Below are positions 2,405-61,046 of a DNA stretch of 61,046 bases, piece by piece (the first letter of the stretch is position 1; each line of letters opens with the position of its first letter). The position numbers were made by a program, and so were the translations under genes. Under the pieces are notes generated by a model. That model had not been told where the DNA came from. It searched no databases and saw only the letters and a program-made list of their open reading frames with translations. Source of the DNA: Candidatus Cloacimonadota bacterium (GTDB lineage: Bacteria > Cloacimonadota > Cloacimonadia > Cloacimonadales > Cloacimonadaceae). Location: positions 1 through 61,046 of the forward strand of contig JAJBBD010000138.1 of NCBI GenBank assembly GCA_020532355.1, given 5' to 3'.

Positions 2405-2582
2405 CTTATGACTCACATGATGCAGAACAAGACAGTTTAATAATTGGGGCATGGAGCAAAGCCCCATACTACAAGGATGGTTGGTGGGCATAACTACGAT
2501 CAAAAGGCTCACCAAGCCGATGTTTGGTGCAGAATAATCTGCTAAATATGGATGTACAACGGTCTCATGACAGTCTATTGGA
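2405..2582 (+). repeat. dispersed intergenic repeat, copy A (reference orientation)
   Basis: Shares the blocks GACAGTTTAATAATTGGGGCATGG, CCCATACTACAAGG, GGTGGGCATA.CTACGATC...GC.CACCAA.CCGA and ATATGGATGT.CAAC.GTCTC with the copies at 9119, 10651 and 44079. Contains hairpins GGGGC/GCCCC and GGTTGGTGGGC/GCTCACCAAGCC. Confidence 0.8.
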
Positions 2583-2725: not shown

Positions 2726-3523
2726 TCACACTCTAAGCGAGTTGATGGGAATCTCCCACTCTCGAGTATCGTGATCCAAGAGCAGTGTTCCGTTTTTAGC
2801 TTTTAGGCGGTCATAGATCTGCCGTTTAGCTTTAACGGTATCTTGACGGCATACATCATAGGCAGATGTTATCGCCAATGAAGTGTGAAATTTTGTGGCT
2901 ATGATGTCTCCGGCATAGATGTAAAATGCCTCAGGGCTGTCAATTTGCACATATTGACTGCCGACGGTATGCCCCCCGGCTTTTACACAAGATATCTCTG
3001 GATATATCTCTGCTTCCCCATCAATGAGCTGTACATCACCTTTTTGTTCCAACAAGCTTAGTTGATAATCGAAATCATAGGCAGCCTTGTTTAGTCGATC
3101 TGGGCTTTTTGCTATTTCCCATTCGTCTTTCTGAATCCAATACTTTGCTTTGGGAAAAGTTAAGGCATGGTGATCTTTAAAACCGGTAATGATACCACCG
3201 GCATGGTCGAAATGGAGATGTGTCATAACAACATCTGTTATATCTGTATCCTTATAACCAAGCTCTGATAATGAATAGGGCAAAGTAAATTCACTCGGTT
3301 GATAGATATCCCGCTGCTTCTCACTGAATCTGTTCCCCAAGCCTGTATCCACCAATATCCTTTTTTTATCGCAGACGATGAGGAGTAAATTCAAATCCAT
3401 CTTTTGTCGACGACGCTCATCCGTTGTTATCTTATCTTTCCAAATTGCGTAGGGCAAAACACCCATCAAAGCACCGCCATCAGACCAATAATTCCCAGCG
3501 TATACTTTGAAAATCTTTGTCAT
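2726..3523 (-). CDS. MBL-fold metallo-hydrolase
   Basis: THLHFDHAGG metallo-beta-lactamase motif. Downstream His/Asp positions (GGHTVGS, LLLDHD). Confidence 0.8.
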   Translation of the reverse strand: MTKIFKVYAGNYWSDGGALMGVLPYAIWKDKITTDERRRQKMDLNLLLIVCDKKRILVDTGLGNRFSEKQRDIYQPSEFTLPYSLSELGYKDTDITDVVMTHLHFDHAGGIITGFKDHHALTFPKAKYWIQKDEWEIAKSPDRLNKAAYDFDYQLSLLEQKGDVQLIDGEAEIYPEISCVKAGGHTVGSQYVQIDSPEAFYIYAGDIIATKFHTSLAITSAYDVCRQDTVKAKRQIYDRLKAKNGTLLLDHDTREWEIPINSLRV

Positions 3524-4419
3524 TATGAATCTCCACCTTGCGTTTTATTGTTTTTTCGGCGCGGTCGATAGTTAGATTTTCGGGGTGGTTTGGGGGAAGG
3601 CTCTGGTTTGTCCTTAGCAGTATCGCTTGTTTTGGCAACAGCTGATGGTTTATTCTCTGTTTTCTTTTGAGGACGGCGATTGCGTTTGGGGCGAACTGAA
3701 GTACTAACGTTTTCTTTTACTACAGTATCTTTTACTTTGGTTTCATTTTCTTTGGCTTGAGTTGGTTTGGGGTTTTTGAGAACTTCACTCTCTTTTTGTT
3801 TGGCAGAAAAAACGACAATACGCTTGATTTCACCTTCACCAATTGTGAGAGTTTTTAGCCCTCTTTGTTTTTCGATATGACGATGGATAATCCTGCGTTC
3901 TGCCGGATTCATTGGCTCTAAAGTTATTGCCTTCCCATTAAGTTTGATCTTTTTAAACTGGGGTAAAAACTTGTCTAAAAACTGGTTCTCCTTGCGCTGT
4001 CGATATCCGTTCGCATCCACATAGATGCGTTCAAAAGTGTTATCAGATTCAAACACGCGATTTATGAAATATTGAATAGTTTCCAGCATTGAGCCATTTT
4101 TCCCGATAACAAAACCGGTTTCTACTATACCCTCAATTGTAATAAAAAGAGTTTTGCCCTCTTTTCTGGTTTTCATTTTAGCAAAGCTTATACCCATTTT
4201 GCTTAGTAGTGTTTCTAGAAAGAGGCGGATTCTATCTTCAGGTTCGGGAAGCTGGAAGCGCACTAGAGCAATCTTATTGGCAAAAAGCCCTAAGAATCCC
4301 TTACTGGGTTTTTTTATGATTTCATAGTGAAGCTCATGATCACTAATATTGTGCTCACGGCGAAAGTTGCGGATGATCTCTTCAACAGAGACTCCGCTTT
4401 TATCGATTGTTGTCATCAA
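3523..4419 (-). CDS. jag: Jag/KhpB-type RNA-binding protein (Jag_N-KH-R3H) with a long basic C-terminal tail
   Basis: R3H motif region PMNPAERRIIHRHIE. Position directly downstream of yidC. The last ~100 aa are Lys/Pro/Arg-rich. Confidence 0.8.
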   Translation of the reverse strand: MMTTIDKSGVSVEEIIRNFRREHNISDHELHYEIIKKPSKGFLGLFANKIALVRFQLPEPEDRIRLFLETLLSKMGISFAKMKTRKEGKTLFITIEGIVETGFVIGKNGSMLETIQYFINRVFESDNTFERIYVDANGYRQRKENQFLDKFLPQFKKIKLNGKAITLEPMNPAERRIIHRHIEKQRGLKTLTIGEGEIKRIVVFSAKQKESEVLKNPKPTQAKENETKVKDTVVKENVSTSVRPKRNRRPQKKTENKPSAVAKTSDTAKDKPEPSPKPPRKSNYRPRRKNNKTQGGDS

Positions 4420-4420
4420 A

Positions 4421-6097
4421 CTATTCCTTATTATGTCTTTTTAGCAGATAGTACTGCTGAATCACCGAAAAGATATTGAACACTGTCCAGTATAAAACCA
4501 ATCCAGCCGGCATATTACGAAAGATGAAGAACATCATGATCGGCATCATCCAAGTCATCATCTTCTGAGAAGACTGAGCCGCCTTCTGTTTATCGTCCAT
4601 ATCTTCGGTTTGTATTTTTTTAGGTTGCATCATTAGGGATTGGATAATCATAAATAGCCCCATAATGATGGGAAGAATCATGTAAGGATCCGGCTCAGAA
4701 AGATCCTTTAACCAAAATATAAAACCTGCATTACGCATATCCAGAGAATAACGTAACACATTGTAAAGGGCAAAAAAAATGGGCATTTGCAATAGCAATG
4801 GTAAACATCCAGATAGTGGGTTTGCGCCAGCTTCTTTGTAAAGTTTGCTCATTTCAAGCTGAAGAGTTTTAGGATCATCCTTATACTTCTTTTGCAGATA
4901 TTGCATTTGCGGCTGAATCTTCTGCATTTTGAGCGATGCATCCATGCTTTTATGGGTAAGAGGATGCAGTATGATTTTGATTACAAGCGCAAGAATTAAT
5001 ATCACAACTCCGTAATTCTGGATGTAGCCATGTAACCAGCTAAGGAACCACGCTATGATATTAGCCAACCAGCGTAGCCAAGAAGCACCCCTCTCGGCAA
5101 TGTTTTCCATCTGTCTTCCATAAGACTTCAGGATTTTCGCATCGGCTGGACCGGCATACAACACAAAGCTTTGTTGCCAATTTGCTTTAGATTCTGCACT
5201 AAAGCTATCGATGGCAAAGCCCGGATTACCGGTATCGGCATTTATCTGTGTGTTAAAACTCTTGCTTAGGGGAGGCTCGTTTTCTTTTAAAGCCAGAGTG
5301 AAATACTTACTTCGTACCGCAGACCATGCATAGCTGCCAAAGCTACCCTGAGGTGGGTTTTTACGCATTTTAGAAAGCGTAACTTTCAGGATTTCGTTAT
5401 CGGCATACAAATAGAATCGATAGTCTTGTGCCTTGCTCTTAGTATTATTCTCGCTATCCGCAATTCCTGCCAGTAGATCATAACGTACACCATTTACGCT
5501 ACCCATGTTTTGGATATTCGTATCCATTATAATGCCATATTGCTCATCAAGTCGATAAACTCTTTTTACTACTGCATCGTTGGCACTGGCTAAACTGAAT
5601 TCTATGCTTCGAGATTGTTCATTTAGCGTATAATTAAAATTGTAAGCACTCAAATCTATTGTATTTCCGCCACTGTAGATATTGGCTCCGAGTATTTGTG
5701 CGTGATTGGGAATAAGATCTACCAAGTTTTCGGGACCGAAATCGAAATGCTTTAACTGGATGGAATTAATCACCGCTCCCTTTGTGTTAAAACCTACCTT
5801 GATGTTTTCATTCTCTAAAAAAAGGATCTCAGCTTCGGCGCTTTGGATAAACAGACTATCAACATTCACTGTTGCAGCAAGAGCTTGATCTGTACTATCG
5901 GTAATAGTATTGTGGGGGCTTTGAGAACTTTGTGGGCTTTCCACAACTTCGCTGTTTTGCGTGGCAATGCGGGCATTATCGCGTCGTGGTTTCCAAACAA
6001 AATGATCGAAAACCAGATACAACACTAGCATCATAAGTAAAGCGGTGATAGTACGTTTATCCAAGCTTATCTCCTTAGGGAAGAGGATCGTATCCAC
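4421..6097 (-). CDS. yidC: membrane protein insertase YidC
   Basis: N-terminal TM, large periplasmic domain, and a conserved C-terminal core ([24 protein letters not shown]). Sits in the rnpA-yidD-yidC context. Confidence 0.9.
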
Positions 6098-6317
6098 CCT
6101 TACAGAAAGGGTTGCAACGCAATATCCGCCAAGAACTTAAATATGTAGCCTTAAGCAGATTATAGCGTTGATACGCCTGTAATGCGTAGGTGGAACATGT
6201 GGGGGTAAAACGGCAAGTCTTAGGTAAAAATGGCGATATACTTAACTGGTAAAATCGAATTAGCATCATAATTAGTTGCGCTGGAATGCTCACAATAAAA
6301 TGTAGTTTTATAAGCAT
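6075..6317 (-). CDS. yidD: membrane protein insertion efficiency factor YidD
   Basis: [11 protein letters not shown] ... [12 protein letters not shown] motifs typical of YidD. Confidence 0.9.
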
Positions 6318-6622
6318 TGCATCATGTCTCCGAGATGCTCACATAGTTGCTGCCAATTAAGGCTGGCAGCACCCGGTTTTGCAATTATATTCATCTTCAA
6401 ATGAGAGGGTAAATTGTTTTCGTGTTCCCGAAACCAAGCCTTCATTCTTCGCTTCAGTCGATTTCTTGATGCCGCATTTGATACTTTTTTGCTGATTGTA
6501 ATACCCAGTGCCGGACCGATAGAATATGGCAAGATGGGTATATAGAAATACTCTGTCCGAATCGCTTTTTCCGCGCGGGTAAACTCCATATATTCCTGAT
6601 GATCTCTGATCCATCGGATCAT
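6308..6622 (-). CDS. rnpA: ribonuclease P protein component
   Basis: Basic RnpA motif [19 protein letters not shown]. Located between rpmH and yidD. Confidence 0.85.
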
Positions 6623-7580: not shown

Positions 7581-8028
7581 TTTTTGTCAAGACTAAATGA
7601 CTTAATTGGGTTTCTTCATATAAGAATATAACAAGTCACTCAATTTTTAAACATAACAATGCAAAAGGATGCAAAAGAAAAAGTAAAGTGTATAACATCT
7701 CCCAAACAGCAATAAACACAGCCGCTAATCCTTATTGTGGCCAATCACAGGCATTTTTACAGTTGACGAATATCAACAAGCTGCAGATGGATAGTTTCGT
7801 TCATGACAAAGAAGTTTTTTTTCTTGAAAGCGAGTATGGCAAAAGCTTCGAATCTCTTCATTGCATTTTTTAAAAAGATATCATTTCCTCAAATATGGCG
7901 GCAAATGAGTGGAAGATCAGCAGGTCATAATTCTATTTTTGAAAAGTAAGGGATGCCTGTGGCATTTTAAGCTTGACAAAACCTTCGATACTATTATGAA
8001 TATTTTTAATAAAAATATGGAGTGATTT

Positions 8029-8490
8029 ATGCGTACACTTGCAAACATTATCTGGCACTTCCCGTTCTTCGGGTTTATTTCTGCATTGGGTGTATTTTTA
8101 GTTGGTGGGTTATTTGTTATAACGGTAATTGGGGCTCCTATTGGCTTAGGTTTGATCCAGTTGAGTAAATTTTTGTTGTCTCCATTTAGCAGTTCTATGG
8201 TTAGCAAATCTGACTTGAGCATAGAACAAAACAAAGCATGGAAAACATTTGGAATTATCGCAACTATTGTGTATATTCCTTTTGGTCTAGTGCTTTGTGT
8301 TGTTACTGTCTGCCAGATTGCGGGTTTGTTTATTTCTATTATCGGCATTCCTATTGCTTTAGTGCTTGCAAAGAGTCTTGGGACATATTTTAATCCGGTT
8401 AATAAAGTCTGTGTTCCAGTGTCAGTTGCCAAAGAGCTTGAGAATCGCAAAGCCAATGCTGATGTAGATAAATATCTGAACAAACAATAA
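8029..8490 (+). CDS. YccF-family inner membrane protein
   Basis: MRTLANIIWHFPFFGF... and the repeated (V/I)IG(A/I)PIGL/IALV motifs are characteristic of YccF domains. A possible TTGACA (7973-7978) / TATGAAT promoter lies upstream. Confidence 0.75.
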   Translation: MRTLANIIWHFPFFGFISALGVFLVGGLFVITVIGAPIGLGLIQLSKFLLSPFSSSMVSKSDLSIEQNKAWKTFGIIATIVYIPFGLVLCVVTVCQIAGLFISIIGIPIALVLAKSLGTYFNPVNKVCVPVSVAKELENRKANADVDKYLNKQ

Positions 8491-9118
8491 CCCAAAATTA
8501 CTCAGTAATTCTTAATCAATAACTCTGTCTCAGCCTGCAAAACACTGTAGATGGTGAATTGTGCTTAGACTTCATCAATGACTAAGTCTTGGTAGATTAT
8601 GCGTATGCAAGAGTCATTATTGTAAGATAACGGAAACTACCCTTCGATAGTCCCCGTGCGCTTGCAAGTTATTCATGCTTATTTAATATGTTTGTGCCTT
8701 ATTACCTTAAAGAGTCAGGGAAATCGCCAATTCCGTACACCGGTTTTGCAATATTAAATGCAATATTATTCTATCCATTTATCGCCATTTGTAAATTTGG
8801 GTAAATCTTTATACGATAACTAGAACCCCACAGTTTCAAGCATATATTAGCGATAGTTCCTCCTGCCATTATCCTGCCGATATAGCAGAATATCCGCCTA
8901 AACCTTAGTTATTTATTCGCTAAGGCATGAGGGTGAGAGGCGGATTGTTTAGTGCTTAAAGCTATTGGTTTCTAAGTTAGCAAAAACCAAGCTGTCATTG
9001 TTGATACTTCTCTCTTCACGAAGTTTTCAAGCCTTTTTTATCATTACTTAAGATCTGCTGATGAATTGATCAAGGCCCAAACTGTGATCATTCCTTATCT
9101 TGGTGATATTTATTATAA

Positions 9119-9266
9119 CCAATTAGAGTCTGTTGCACATCCAGATATAACAGACTTATATGCACGAGATCTCGGTTTGGTGGGCTTTATCAGATCGTAG
9201 CTATGCCCACCCACACACTTGTAGTATGGGAATCCCCCTTCCCCATGCCCAGATTACTCAACCGTC
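9119..9266 (-). repeat. dispersed intergenic repeat, copy C (inverted orientation)
   Basis: The reverse complement aligns with copy A over essentially its full length: GACGGTTGAGTAATCTGGGCATGG, CCCATACTACAAG, GGTGGGCATAGCTACGATC..AAAGCCCACCAAACCGAGATC, GGATGTGCAACAGACTC. Confidence 0.8.
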
Positions 9267-9382
9267 ATAATTATATAATTGAGAGCGACACCTCGAACTG
9301 ACTGAATAATATTTAGATAAGGAATAGAAATTGCTTCATAAATATAGGTGTTACATTGTCATCCCGAGCGAAGGAGGATATC

Positions 9383-10650: not shown

Positions 10651-10782
10651 GCCTGTGATGAATAATTGAGATATGTGGCAGAGCCCCATACTACAAGGGT
10701 GCTAGCTAGGCTCAGATAAAGCCCACCAAACTGAGATCCCGTGCATAAAAATATGCTATATATGGATGTTCAACAGTCTCAT
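10651..10782 (+). repeat. dispersed intergenic repeat, copy B
   Basis: GATGAATAATTGAG..GCCCCATACTACAAGGG ... AAAGCCCACCAAACTGAGATCCCGTGCATA ... ATATGGATGTTCAACAGTCTCAT. The 5' arm of the central hairpin is degraded. The 3' end abuts the stop of the methyltransferase gene. Confidence 0.75.
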
Positions 10783-13560: not shown

Positions 13561-13740
13561 CTGCATATTGTGCACCATCTACATAACCGTAGGCTTAGAA
13601 AAGGTTAAAGCAGACATAAAGCTATCCGACGGGAGTATCTCGGGGGGAACTATGCCCAAAACTAAGCTGAAGCCATAGGGAAGCAAAGACTGAGGATATG
13701 AGCATCAAAGACTAGTGGATTATCCAAGTCCATAAGTGTC
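13561..13740 (-). repeat. degenerate copy of the dispersed repeat (copy F, inverted)
   Basis: The reverse complement contains CTTATGGACT, GGGCATAG, GAGATACTCCCGTC and ATGTAGATGGTGCACAA in the same order as the family blocks. It shares the exact 14-mer GAGATACTCCCGTC with the copy at 21124-21137. Confidence 0.45.
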
Positions 13741-21029: not shown

Positions 21030-21180
21030 CCCTTACTGGGCGGCGTTTTATTCTAGATAGTTTGCTCATGGTTTCAACATGATACCCTGATGTTTTAACT
21101 AGACATTACCTATAGTTAAACGAGAGATACTCCCGTCTGCATACGAGGATCTCAAGATGAATCATTGTTAATACTAACCC
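21030..21180 (+). repeat. degenerate copy of the dispersed repeat (copy G)
   Basis: CCCTTACTGGG, GCTCATGG and GAGATACTCCCGTCTGCATA appear in family order. Exact 14-mer shared with copy F. Much weaker than copies A-D. Confidence 0.35.
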
Positions 21181-43468: not shown

Positions 43469-43770
43469 TTGTGCTCCTTTTTACCGCTTGGTAAAATAGT
43501 ATTTTTTCCACGCTTTCGAATTGGCTGTTTATGTCAATGGAATTCTACGAGCCTGTCGAGCATGGACGAGCACTTTTGGCTATTATAATTTATAGGATTC
43601 ATCTTGATATCAAATAATATCGATAAAGTGTCTGAAAAACTGCAAACTGAGAAAAAGTACTACTGTGAGATTGATTTTTGAACTAATATTTTCATAGTTG
43701 TTCAACTATGTTACCATGCTATGAAGCATTCTCAATATTCTTGCAAGCAAAAGGATAATGATTGGGACAT

Positions 43771-43935
43771 CCTTATGCACTCACGGCAGAACCATAAATC
43801 TGTAGAGCGGGTAAAGGTGGTTGGTATGGCATGATTTTTATTCCCTAACGATTGCAGGCCTTTTCATAAAAGCATTTGCGATACTTCAGCCAACCAAGAG
43901 ATTGCCGGATCCACCATATCTCCCTCATCACCTTA
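43771..43935 (+). repeat. divergent copy of the dispersed repeat (copy E) with an expanded central loop
   Basis: CCTTATGCACTCACGGCAGAAC matches the 5' extension of copy A (CCTTATGACTCAC..GCAGAAC). AAGGTGGTTGGTATGGCAT ... GCCAACCAAGAGAT reproduces the central inverted repeat with a longer loop. Confidence 0.45.
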
Positions 43936-44078
43936 AGTATATTTCAAGCATGATTTAGGCAGGGATTCTCCTTTGCTCACAGGATGATGTCTGCTTAAAG
44001 CTTCGCTAGTGTTTACTTGAAAGAATGGGAAAACCACATGTAGTTATAAAAAAAAAGTAAACCCACTCCCAAATACAA

Positions 44079-44205
44079 GACCGTTGAATAGGCGGATACC
44101 AATATTACACGGGTGGTGAGTGAGCATAGATGCGATCCGAAGAAGCCCACCAAACCGATGTCTTGCACATAGATAATCTGCTATAGATAGATGTGCAACG
44201 GTCTC
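44079..44205 (+). repeat. dispersed intergenic repeat, copy D
   Basis: GACCGTTGAATAGG, TATTACACGGGTGGTGAGTGAGCATAG..GCGATC..GAAGCCCACCAAACCGATGT, ATAATCTGCTATAGATAGATGTGCAACGGTCTC. Lacks the first small hairpin of copy A. Confidence 0.7.
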
Positions 44206-44228: not shown

Positions 44229-44261
44229 AAAAAGCCCATCCCCTCTCGGAGACAGGCTTTT
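44229..44261 (-). terminator. rho-independent terminator after the AOR gene
   Basis: The minus strand reads AGCCTGTCTCC-gaga-GGGGATGGGCT (11 bp with G-U pairs) followed by TTTTT. Confidence 0.6.
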
Positions 44262-44280
44262 CATGTTATATTTTTCTGAT

Positions 44281-60590: not shown

Positions 60591-61046
60591 GTTTCACTCC
60601 AGTTTTATGTTTTTTAGCTCAATTCAACTTAGAGATTTCATTGTTTGTGCAATTGGCTTTACGTCAAGAACTTTTTGGATTCTGAGTAAAGTGAATTTAG
60701 CAACAGATGAATATAAAGAGTCACTCATATTTACAAATGGAGATCGCTTGGATAAATGGGAATGAAGTCTTATGTGGTTGGGAGATAGAAAAGACTTTTT
60801 ATGGATAATTGCTTGCTTGGGTTTAGACCTTTTTGTGCGTGTTTGGATCACCAATTATTGCAAATTGAGCTTACTTCGGACAATTTATGGTCTTTGGCGT
60901 TTAGCTCTGAATTTACCGAATTTCATAAGCCGCAAAGAAGTAACAATACTCCGATCAGAAATGCATCACCCCCCTTTTCTTCGTCTATAATCCTAACCTT
61001 GTAATCTGAATGATTAAGTCGCATTTCTACCAGTTTAGATAATAAA

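Follow-up and report, generated by a model that had tools for sequence, protein, structure and literature searches.

A lineage-restricted family of short, decayed intergenic repeats in Candidatus Cloacimonadota, probably of the MITE type

Candidatus Cloacimonadota is an uncultured phylum that is common in anaerobic digesters. A first-pass annotation of 61,046 nt of DNA from a member of this phylum (the window, by which we mean the whole stretch analysed) described an intergenic repeat with a hairpin, in four clear and three weaker copies, and left two readings side by side: decaying mobile or REP-like DNA, and an RNA or protein-binding structure whose central stem had been retained. We asked which kind of element this repeat is. 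Our analysis indicates that it is probably a family of MITEs, that is, non-autonomous, non-coding DNA transposons, of ~130-143 bp.

We searched the window with an nhmmer profile built from the four clear copies, A to D. Exactly these four were recovered, with E-values from 4e-39 to 9e-54, and the next-best match had an E-value of 4.8; a covariance model likewise found A-D. A MAFFT alignment bore out the common ordered blocks that had been described for these copies, with a mean column identity of 67% and long invariant runs within the 3' half, and a repeat search of the window that was independent of the profile matched B to C over 78 nt at 85% identity. The true limits of the copies are tighter than those first given (Table 1). 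The three weaker relatives (43771-43935, 13561-13740 and 21030-21180) did not hold up: they were missed at E <= 10 by the covariance model and by nhmmer with both four-copy and seven-row profiles, as well as by blastn of intergenic sequence at a word size of 7. Hence, we count four copies in the window, not seven. An exact 14-mer, GAGATACTCCCGTC, had been put forward as common to two of the weaker relatives; this is at the level of chance, with ~14 such pairs expected in 61 kb on both strands. The 14-mer lies inside a 26-nt inverted match of 81% identity (13628-13653 and 21112-21137) that is no better than many chance matches, and the sequence around it bears no likeness to the repeat at either place.

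Table 1. Full-length and deleted copies of the repeat, with their gene setting and the 5-mers that flank them (flanks are given as 5'/3' of the element; positions refer to the window).
Copy	Position	Strand	Form	Gene setting	Flanking 5-mers	Identical flank positions
A	2429-2566	+	138 bp, full length	between convergent RCC1/DUF4842 gene and metallo-beta-lactamase-fold gene	AGAAC (2424-2428)/ATGAC (2567-2571)	3/5
B	9126-9268	-	143 bp, full length, every hairpin intact	between yccF (8029-8490, +) and T9SS-tailed protein gene (+)	TAATT (9269-9273)/TAATT (9121-9125), on element strand; perfect match	5/5
C	10651-10780	+	130 bp; degenerate 5' terminus; 5' arm of central hairpin deleted	nearly fills 170-nt spacer between convergent T9SS-tailed protein gene and methyltransferase gene	TTTCT/ATTTA	2/5
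D	44077-44205	+	129 bp; a 12-nt deletion removes the 5' arm of the first hairpin	812-nt spacer between aldehyde:ferredoxin oxidoreductase gene and gcvPA	AATAC/TAAGC	2/5
E					TAGCA/TGGCA	4/5
F					TTAAT/TTAAT	5/5
H					AACTA/TACAA	3/5

Gene context confirmed that all copies are intergenic and that they occur in both orientations. Gene calls in sister contigs identify the gene on one side of copy B as yccF (153 aa, PF03733). A 192-aa ORF on the opposite strand (7917-8495, -) was rejected as spurious, since yccF occupies the + strand there; copy B therefore sits between two + strand genes. The window also encodes T9SS sorting tails (in the flanking genes), an LpxC-FabZ fusion, a split GcvP and an aldehyde:ferredoxin oxidoreductase. 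The GcvPA homologues that we found are assigned by their sources to Candidatus Cloacimonetes or Cloacimonadota. A cluster of jag, yidC, yidD, rnpA and rpmH, which in many bacteria lies near the replication origin, is found at 3523-6622, and copies A, B and C, together with a truncated copy, G, are all within 10 kb. Two hairpins with T runs lie outside the repeat: one at 2319-2348, 3' of the RCC1/DUF4842 gene and beside copy A, and one at 44230-44262, beside copy D and after the oxidoreductase gene (-), which could work bidirectionally. The ~90 nt directly upstream of gcvPA (~43469-43565, -) are the sole part of the 812-nt spacer that is conserved in two sister species. This stretch reads GAGAATTCCATTGACATAAA...TGGAAAAAATACTATTTTAC...AAAGGAGCA-ATG and is probably the promoter and leader of the gene; a search of it with Rfam detected neither a glycine riboswitch nor any other family.

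The window copies range from 129 to 143 bp. The element starts with AAGACCGTTGA and ends with GCAACGGTCTC, and in the consensus 9 of 10 positions of AAGACCGTTG match the reverse complement of CAACGGTCTC, the inverted termini continuing imperfectly to ~17 nt. In A, B, C, F and H the inverted match is short and imperfect, and of all the copies D has the best one, GACCGTTG / CAACGGTC. Over the whole alignment, 81% of the cells in the terminal helix are paired. Three internal hairpins lie between the termini, which read, in the orientation of the first-pass annotation, GGGGC...GCCCC (5'-proximal), GGTGGGC...GCCCACC (central) and a small GCA...TGC (3'-proximal). The central inverted repeat had been listed among the blocks common to all four copies; we found it in A, B and D, its 5' arm being deleted in C. 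Loss of a hairpin arm had been assigned to B, which is intact, and it is C that has lost one; for D, described as having lost a whole sub-hairpin, the loss is of the 12-nt 5' arm of its first hairpin. Towards the 3' end, the block TGGATGTGCAAC.GTCTC is nearly invariant among copies.

Protein coding is ruled out. The short ORF in copy A, already judged not to be conserved, stops after 18 codons in B and after 2 in E. Pfam annotation of the loci and of the remaining ORFs detected no transposase or integrase in the window, in agreement with the earlier observation, and no transposase was found in the additional same-species loci that we examined. A search of the retrieved loci for the terminus motif returned the known copies and scattered single matches, and nothing further; neither the window nor the retrieved loci contain an autonomous element with matching termini.

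Same-species contigs searched with nhmmer and the covariance model added three full copies (E, F and H) and two truncated ones (G and I). An exact-pattern scan of JGI metagenomes yielded three contigs, all from the sample pair Ga0265294/Ga0265295. One of them overlaps the window start and carries the truncated copy G as well; the other two carry the new full copies E (contig L012) and F (contig L011). Both are like the window in composition (GC 41.4%; tetranucleotide r of 0.96 and 0.91), and the sister-species loci have a GC content of 46-51% and lower tetranucleotide r. The full copy H and the partial copy I were found on an ENA contig that runs past the window end. The neighbouring genes are divergent for copies E, F and G, convergent for A and C, and co-directional for B, D, H and I, and they lie at distances that vary from ~6 to ~600 nt. 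In total, we identified seven full and two truncated copies in ~95 kb of same-species sequence. Five of the full copies and both truncated ones lie within ~75 kb of contiguous genome; by extrapolation, if this density holds, the genome would contain ~150-230 copies, amounting to ~1% of its length.

A check for target-site duplications had been proposed at first pass, and it gave a positive result. We scanned every combination of boundary offsets for duplications of 2-9 bp, and the strongest signal came from repeats of exactly 5 bp placed directly against AAGAC... and ...GTCTC. Only two of the seven copies, B and F, have perfect 5-bp duplications (Table 1). Summed over six copies, the two flanks agree at 21 of 30 positions, compared with 31% in flanks paired across copies (binomial 1.5e-5). 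When the flanks were deranged and rescanned over lengths of 4-9 bp, none of 100 derangements matched the observed signal, and the best null value was 2.7e-3. The left flanks are all different (AGAAC, TAATT, AATAC, TAGCA, TTAAT, TCTTA and AACTA). A duplication of this kind is what transposition with a 5-bp stagger, whether cut-and-paste or copy-in, leaves behind. We also considered a composite transposon formed by the inverted copies B and C around the T9SS-tailed gene, and found no support for it: B is flanked by a perfect duplication of its own, and the outer flanks of the pair agree at only 4/5 positions.

Pairwise identity among the seven full copies is 71-84%, with no close pairs, such that their relationship is star-like. 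The numbers of alignment columns with 0, 1, 2, 3 and 4 departures from the consensus were 49, 34, 22, 6 and 2, compared with 42, 45, 20, 5 and 1 for a single-rate binomial. There is no sign of strongly constrained versus free segments, and the divergence fits uniform neutral decay. Two copies (G and I) are truncated, and two others (C and D) have internal deletions. Together with the inverted termini and the 5-bp duplications, these truncated and deleted copies uphold the original description of the repeat as non-coding, decaying mobile DNA.

The family is previously undescribed and restricted to one lineage. Rfam at gathering thresholds detected tRNA-Leu as the only match in the whole window, in keeping with the failure to recognise the family at first pass, and a permissive Rfam search of copies A and B gave no element-overlapping match with an E-value below 3. 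There was no blastn match in plasmid and phage collections, and viral contigs gave 17 chance pattern matches (nhmmer E > 0.2). An exact pattern that fits all four window copies and F had only 2 chance matches among the genomes of 185,579 species (one genome per species), and in JGI metagenomes it matched solely in samples of the window's own species. We found no described Cloacimonadota MITE or IS element in the searchable literature. Using nhmmer and the covariance model, we detected no copy in 58 kb from three sister species, in two of which (L013 and L014) GcvPA is 84-86% identical and in the third of which (L016) the methyltransferase is 64% identical. The syntenic oxidoreductase-gcvPA spacer of L013 and L014 is shorter and lacks copy D; it is unalignable except for the ~90 nt upstream of gcvPA, and hence offers no precise empty site. 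The window sequence recurs in several MAGs and metagenome assemblies of the species, and none of those that cover a copy lacks it (3-7 assemblies, 99.3-99.9% identity). Insertion polymorphism, which had been suggested as a test of mobility, was thus not seen among these assemblies of close strains, and the family looks inactive today. It appears to be an old burst that was confined to one lineage.

A second mobile element, unrelated to the repeat and ~1033 bp long, lies at the end of the window, which contains its right 335 nt (60712-61046) and ends inside it; the whole element is on the ENA contig (L041:3532-4564). It is bounded by 16-bp inverted repeats, TATTAAGAGTCACCCA and TATAAAGAGTCACTCA. 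The filled site has an 8-bp direct repeat, ATATTCAT, on both sides, and the empty site reads ...GTTAATATTCAT|CTGTTGC.... The element is present in the window strain and in L041 and is cleanly absent from two other contigs, L042 and L019 (99.7% identical); it is thus demonstrably polymorphic, unlike the ~140-bp repeat family. Four other assemblies break exactly at its junction. The element contains a 191-aa ORF, for which no Pfam hit is recorded, as well as two ~100-bp GC-rich direct repeats, and we recognised no transposase in it and no Rfam match that reaches a family's threshold. An apparent polymorphism of copy H near 60714 (contig L019) was rejected, as H is in both alleles and it is the ~1033-bp element, 13 nt away, that differs. 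A stretch of 33 nt at 8781-8813 matches, in reverse complement and at 85% identity, the right end of the ~1033-bp element (60712-60744) and may be a solo end or remnant of it, ~300 nt from copy B.

In a rival reading, the internal hairpins are the functional structure, and the copies would be paralogues of a small RNA gene, or a cis-acting mRNA element, on the complementary strand. The best four-helix consensus structure on that strand has 88% of cells paired and a better consensus fold energy than the other strand (-11.1 versus -6.0 kcal/mol); single-side changes in the central stem mostly give G-U on the complementary strand (6 versus 1); and B, D, H and I, all between co-directional genes, have the same orientation and point the way of those genes (chance p ~0.06). 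However, covariation was no higher than in shuffled alignments (0.132, a score that 343 of 500 shuffles equalled or exceeded, versus a shuffled expectation of 0.140; for seven sequences and hence with limited power), and pairs changed on both sides numbered 2 among these seven sequences, where 1.9 are expected. RNAalifold covariation terms were unfavourable on both strands, and single-sequence folding z-scores were weak (-0.4 to -2.6). The G-U asymmetry falls to ~4:1 independent events after allowing for shared ancestry of D and H, and is not significant. No promoter- or terminator-like site recurs inside the element, and the promoter-like sites of pgk and of the gene beside F fall between element and gene. 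Added to this are the absence of an Rfam match, the persistence of truncated and deleted copies, and the 5-bp flanking duplications, which are unexpected for RNA genes. A structured RNA is thus distinctly unlikely, and the suggestion that the central stem was kept as an RNA structure gained no support from these tests. Given the absent covariation and the uniform decay, we attribute the stems to a palindromic master copy from which all copies descend. A single-stranded-DNA hairpin element, either REP/REPIN-like (RAYT) or derived from IS200/IS605, would be recognised by its enzyme through subterminal hairpins and not through its termini. The REP signature is GTAG followed by a palindrome, and RAYT is the REP-associated Y1 transposase. 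The complementary strand of our repeat has GTAG twice, each time before a stem arm (GTAGTATGGGGC...GCCCCAT and GATCGTAGCTATGCCCACC), and one strand keeps its pairing better. Nevertheless, we regard this reading as very improbable: the repeat, ~140 bp long and with three unlike hairpins, has neither the form of a single palindrome of 20-40 nt nor that of a symmetric REP doublet; its inverted termini are flanked by variable 5-bp duplications; and none of the genes in the window codes for a Y1 transposase. IS200/IS605 and RAYT systems produce no duplication and insert beside a constant 4-5-nt target, whereas the left flanks here all differ; elements derived from IS200/IS605 also have no inverted termini.

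Maintenance by the host at the level of DNA, for example as a site for a nucleoid or regulatory protein that was spread by recombination or old transposition and then kept by selection, would be in line with the intergenic position of all copies, their fixation in all strains and the nearly invariant 3' block. Yet the divergence fits one neutral rate, copies with large deletions persist, the sister species lack the element, and its position relative to genes is inconsistent (convergent, divergent and tandem settings, over the range of distances given above), so that we give this explanation hardly any weight. An integron attC site was also rejected: the core order is reversed (GTTGA...CAAC versus RYYYAAC...GTTRRRY), the copies lie in both orientations over 42 kb, and there is no integrase. 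The shared orientation of B, D, H and I, the better fold and the G-U/G-T bias in the stem are hints that the complementary strand might be the working one, either as single-stranded-DNA hairpins that a non-DDE enzyme recognises or, transcribed together with its neighbours, as an RNA module. These hints are weak, being not significant at the present sample size, and we consider a working complementary strand unlikely. If true, a phylum without cultured genetics would possess a new hairpin element, regulatory or mobile, whose action depends on orientation.

We therefore favour a MITE family. The repeat is small (MITEs being shorter than ~600 bp) and non-coding, with inverted termini, an abutting duplication of fixed length and multiple dispersed copies, all of them features of MITEs. 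Beyond what these features show, we infer a transposase-mediated mechanism, a single burst and present inactivity. A transposase encoded elsewhere would have recognised the ~10-bp termini, imperfect to ~17 bp, and would have inserted the element into AT-rich intergenic DNA with cuts staggered by 5 bp, giving rise to the 5-bp target-site duplications. One amplification burst would have taken place in this Cloacimonadota lineage, after its split from the nearest sampled relatives. Later neutral decay by point changes, internal deletions and truncations would have left copies that are now fixed and apparently immobile, and the internal hairpins would be palindromes inherited from the master copy, without selective upkeep.

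The family is real, but it is of an ordinary and well-known kind, and the result is a modest one with no bearing on long-standing open questions. It documents a MITE family in Candidatus Cloacimonadota, a phylum whose mobile DNA is apparently little known. Such repeats break short-read assemblies, and they could be used as strain or lineage markers. The termini provide a concrete query for the parent transposase.

How does the repeat compare with known systems? Like REP and REPIN elements, it is short, abundant, intergenic and hairpin-forming, with GTAG beside a stem on one strand. Unlike them, it is much longer and does not take the form of a simple palindrome or doublet, inverted termini and 5-bp duplications mark its ends, and we saw no RAYT gene. 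Among insertion sequences, what we take to be the IS903 inverted repeat (GGCTTTGTTGAATAAATC) agrees exactly with GTTGAATAA, positions 7-15 of the 5' terminus, in the same register counted from the tip. In Tn903, IS903 adjoins aph(3')-Ia; the 32-mer that we assume to be from IS903 is found at 100% identity in more than 5000 plasmids, beside aph(3')-Ia, and is unlabelled as IS903 in their feature tables, which are incomplete. The presumed end of IS5, GGAAGGTGCGAATAAGCGGGG, has GAATAA and CGGGG in register with the repeat. In contrast to IS903, the outermost 6 bp of the repeat differ and its 3' terminus (GTTGCACATCC) lacks the motif. Target-site duplications are 9 bp in the IS903 group and 4 bp for IS5, and hence the 5-bp duplication of the repeat is a misfit with both groups. 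There is no IS5-family transposase near any copy, and an IS5-family parent element is a lead only. The closest likeness in kind is to the MITEs of other bacteria, which include Correia/NEMIS in Neisseria, RUP in Streptococcus pneumoniae, Nezha in cyanobacteria and Chunjie in Geobacter. The Cloacimonadota repeat differs from Correia and RUP, which duplicate TA, in that it duplicates 5 bp at AT-rich sites, and its inverted termini are ~10 bp long, compared with 26 bp in Correia. Like bacterial MITEs, it is a non-coding element of ~100-200 bp with terminal inverted repeats and short target-site duplications, and it can form hairpins and is present in many dispersed intergenic copies, in both orientations, within one lineage.
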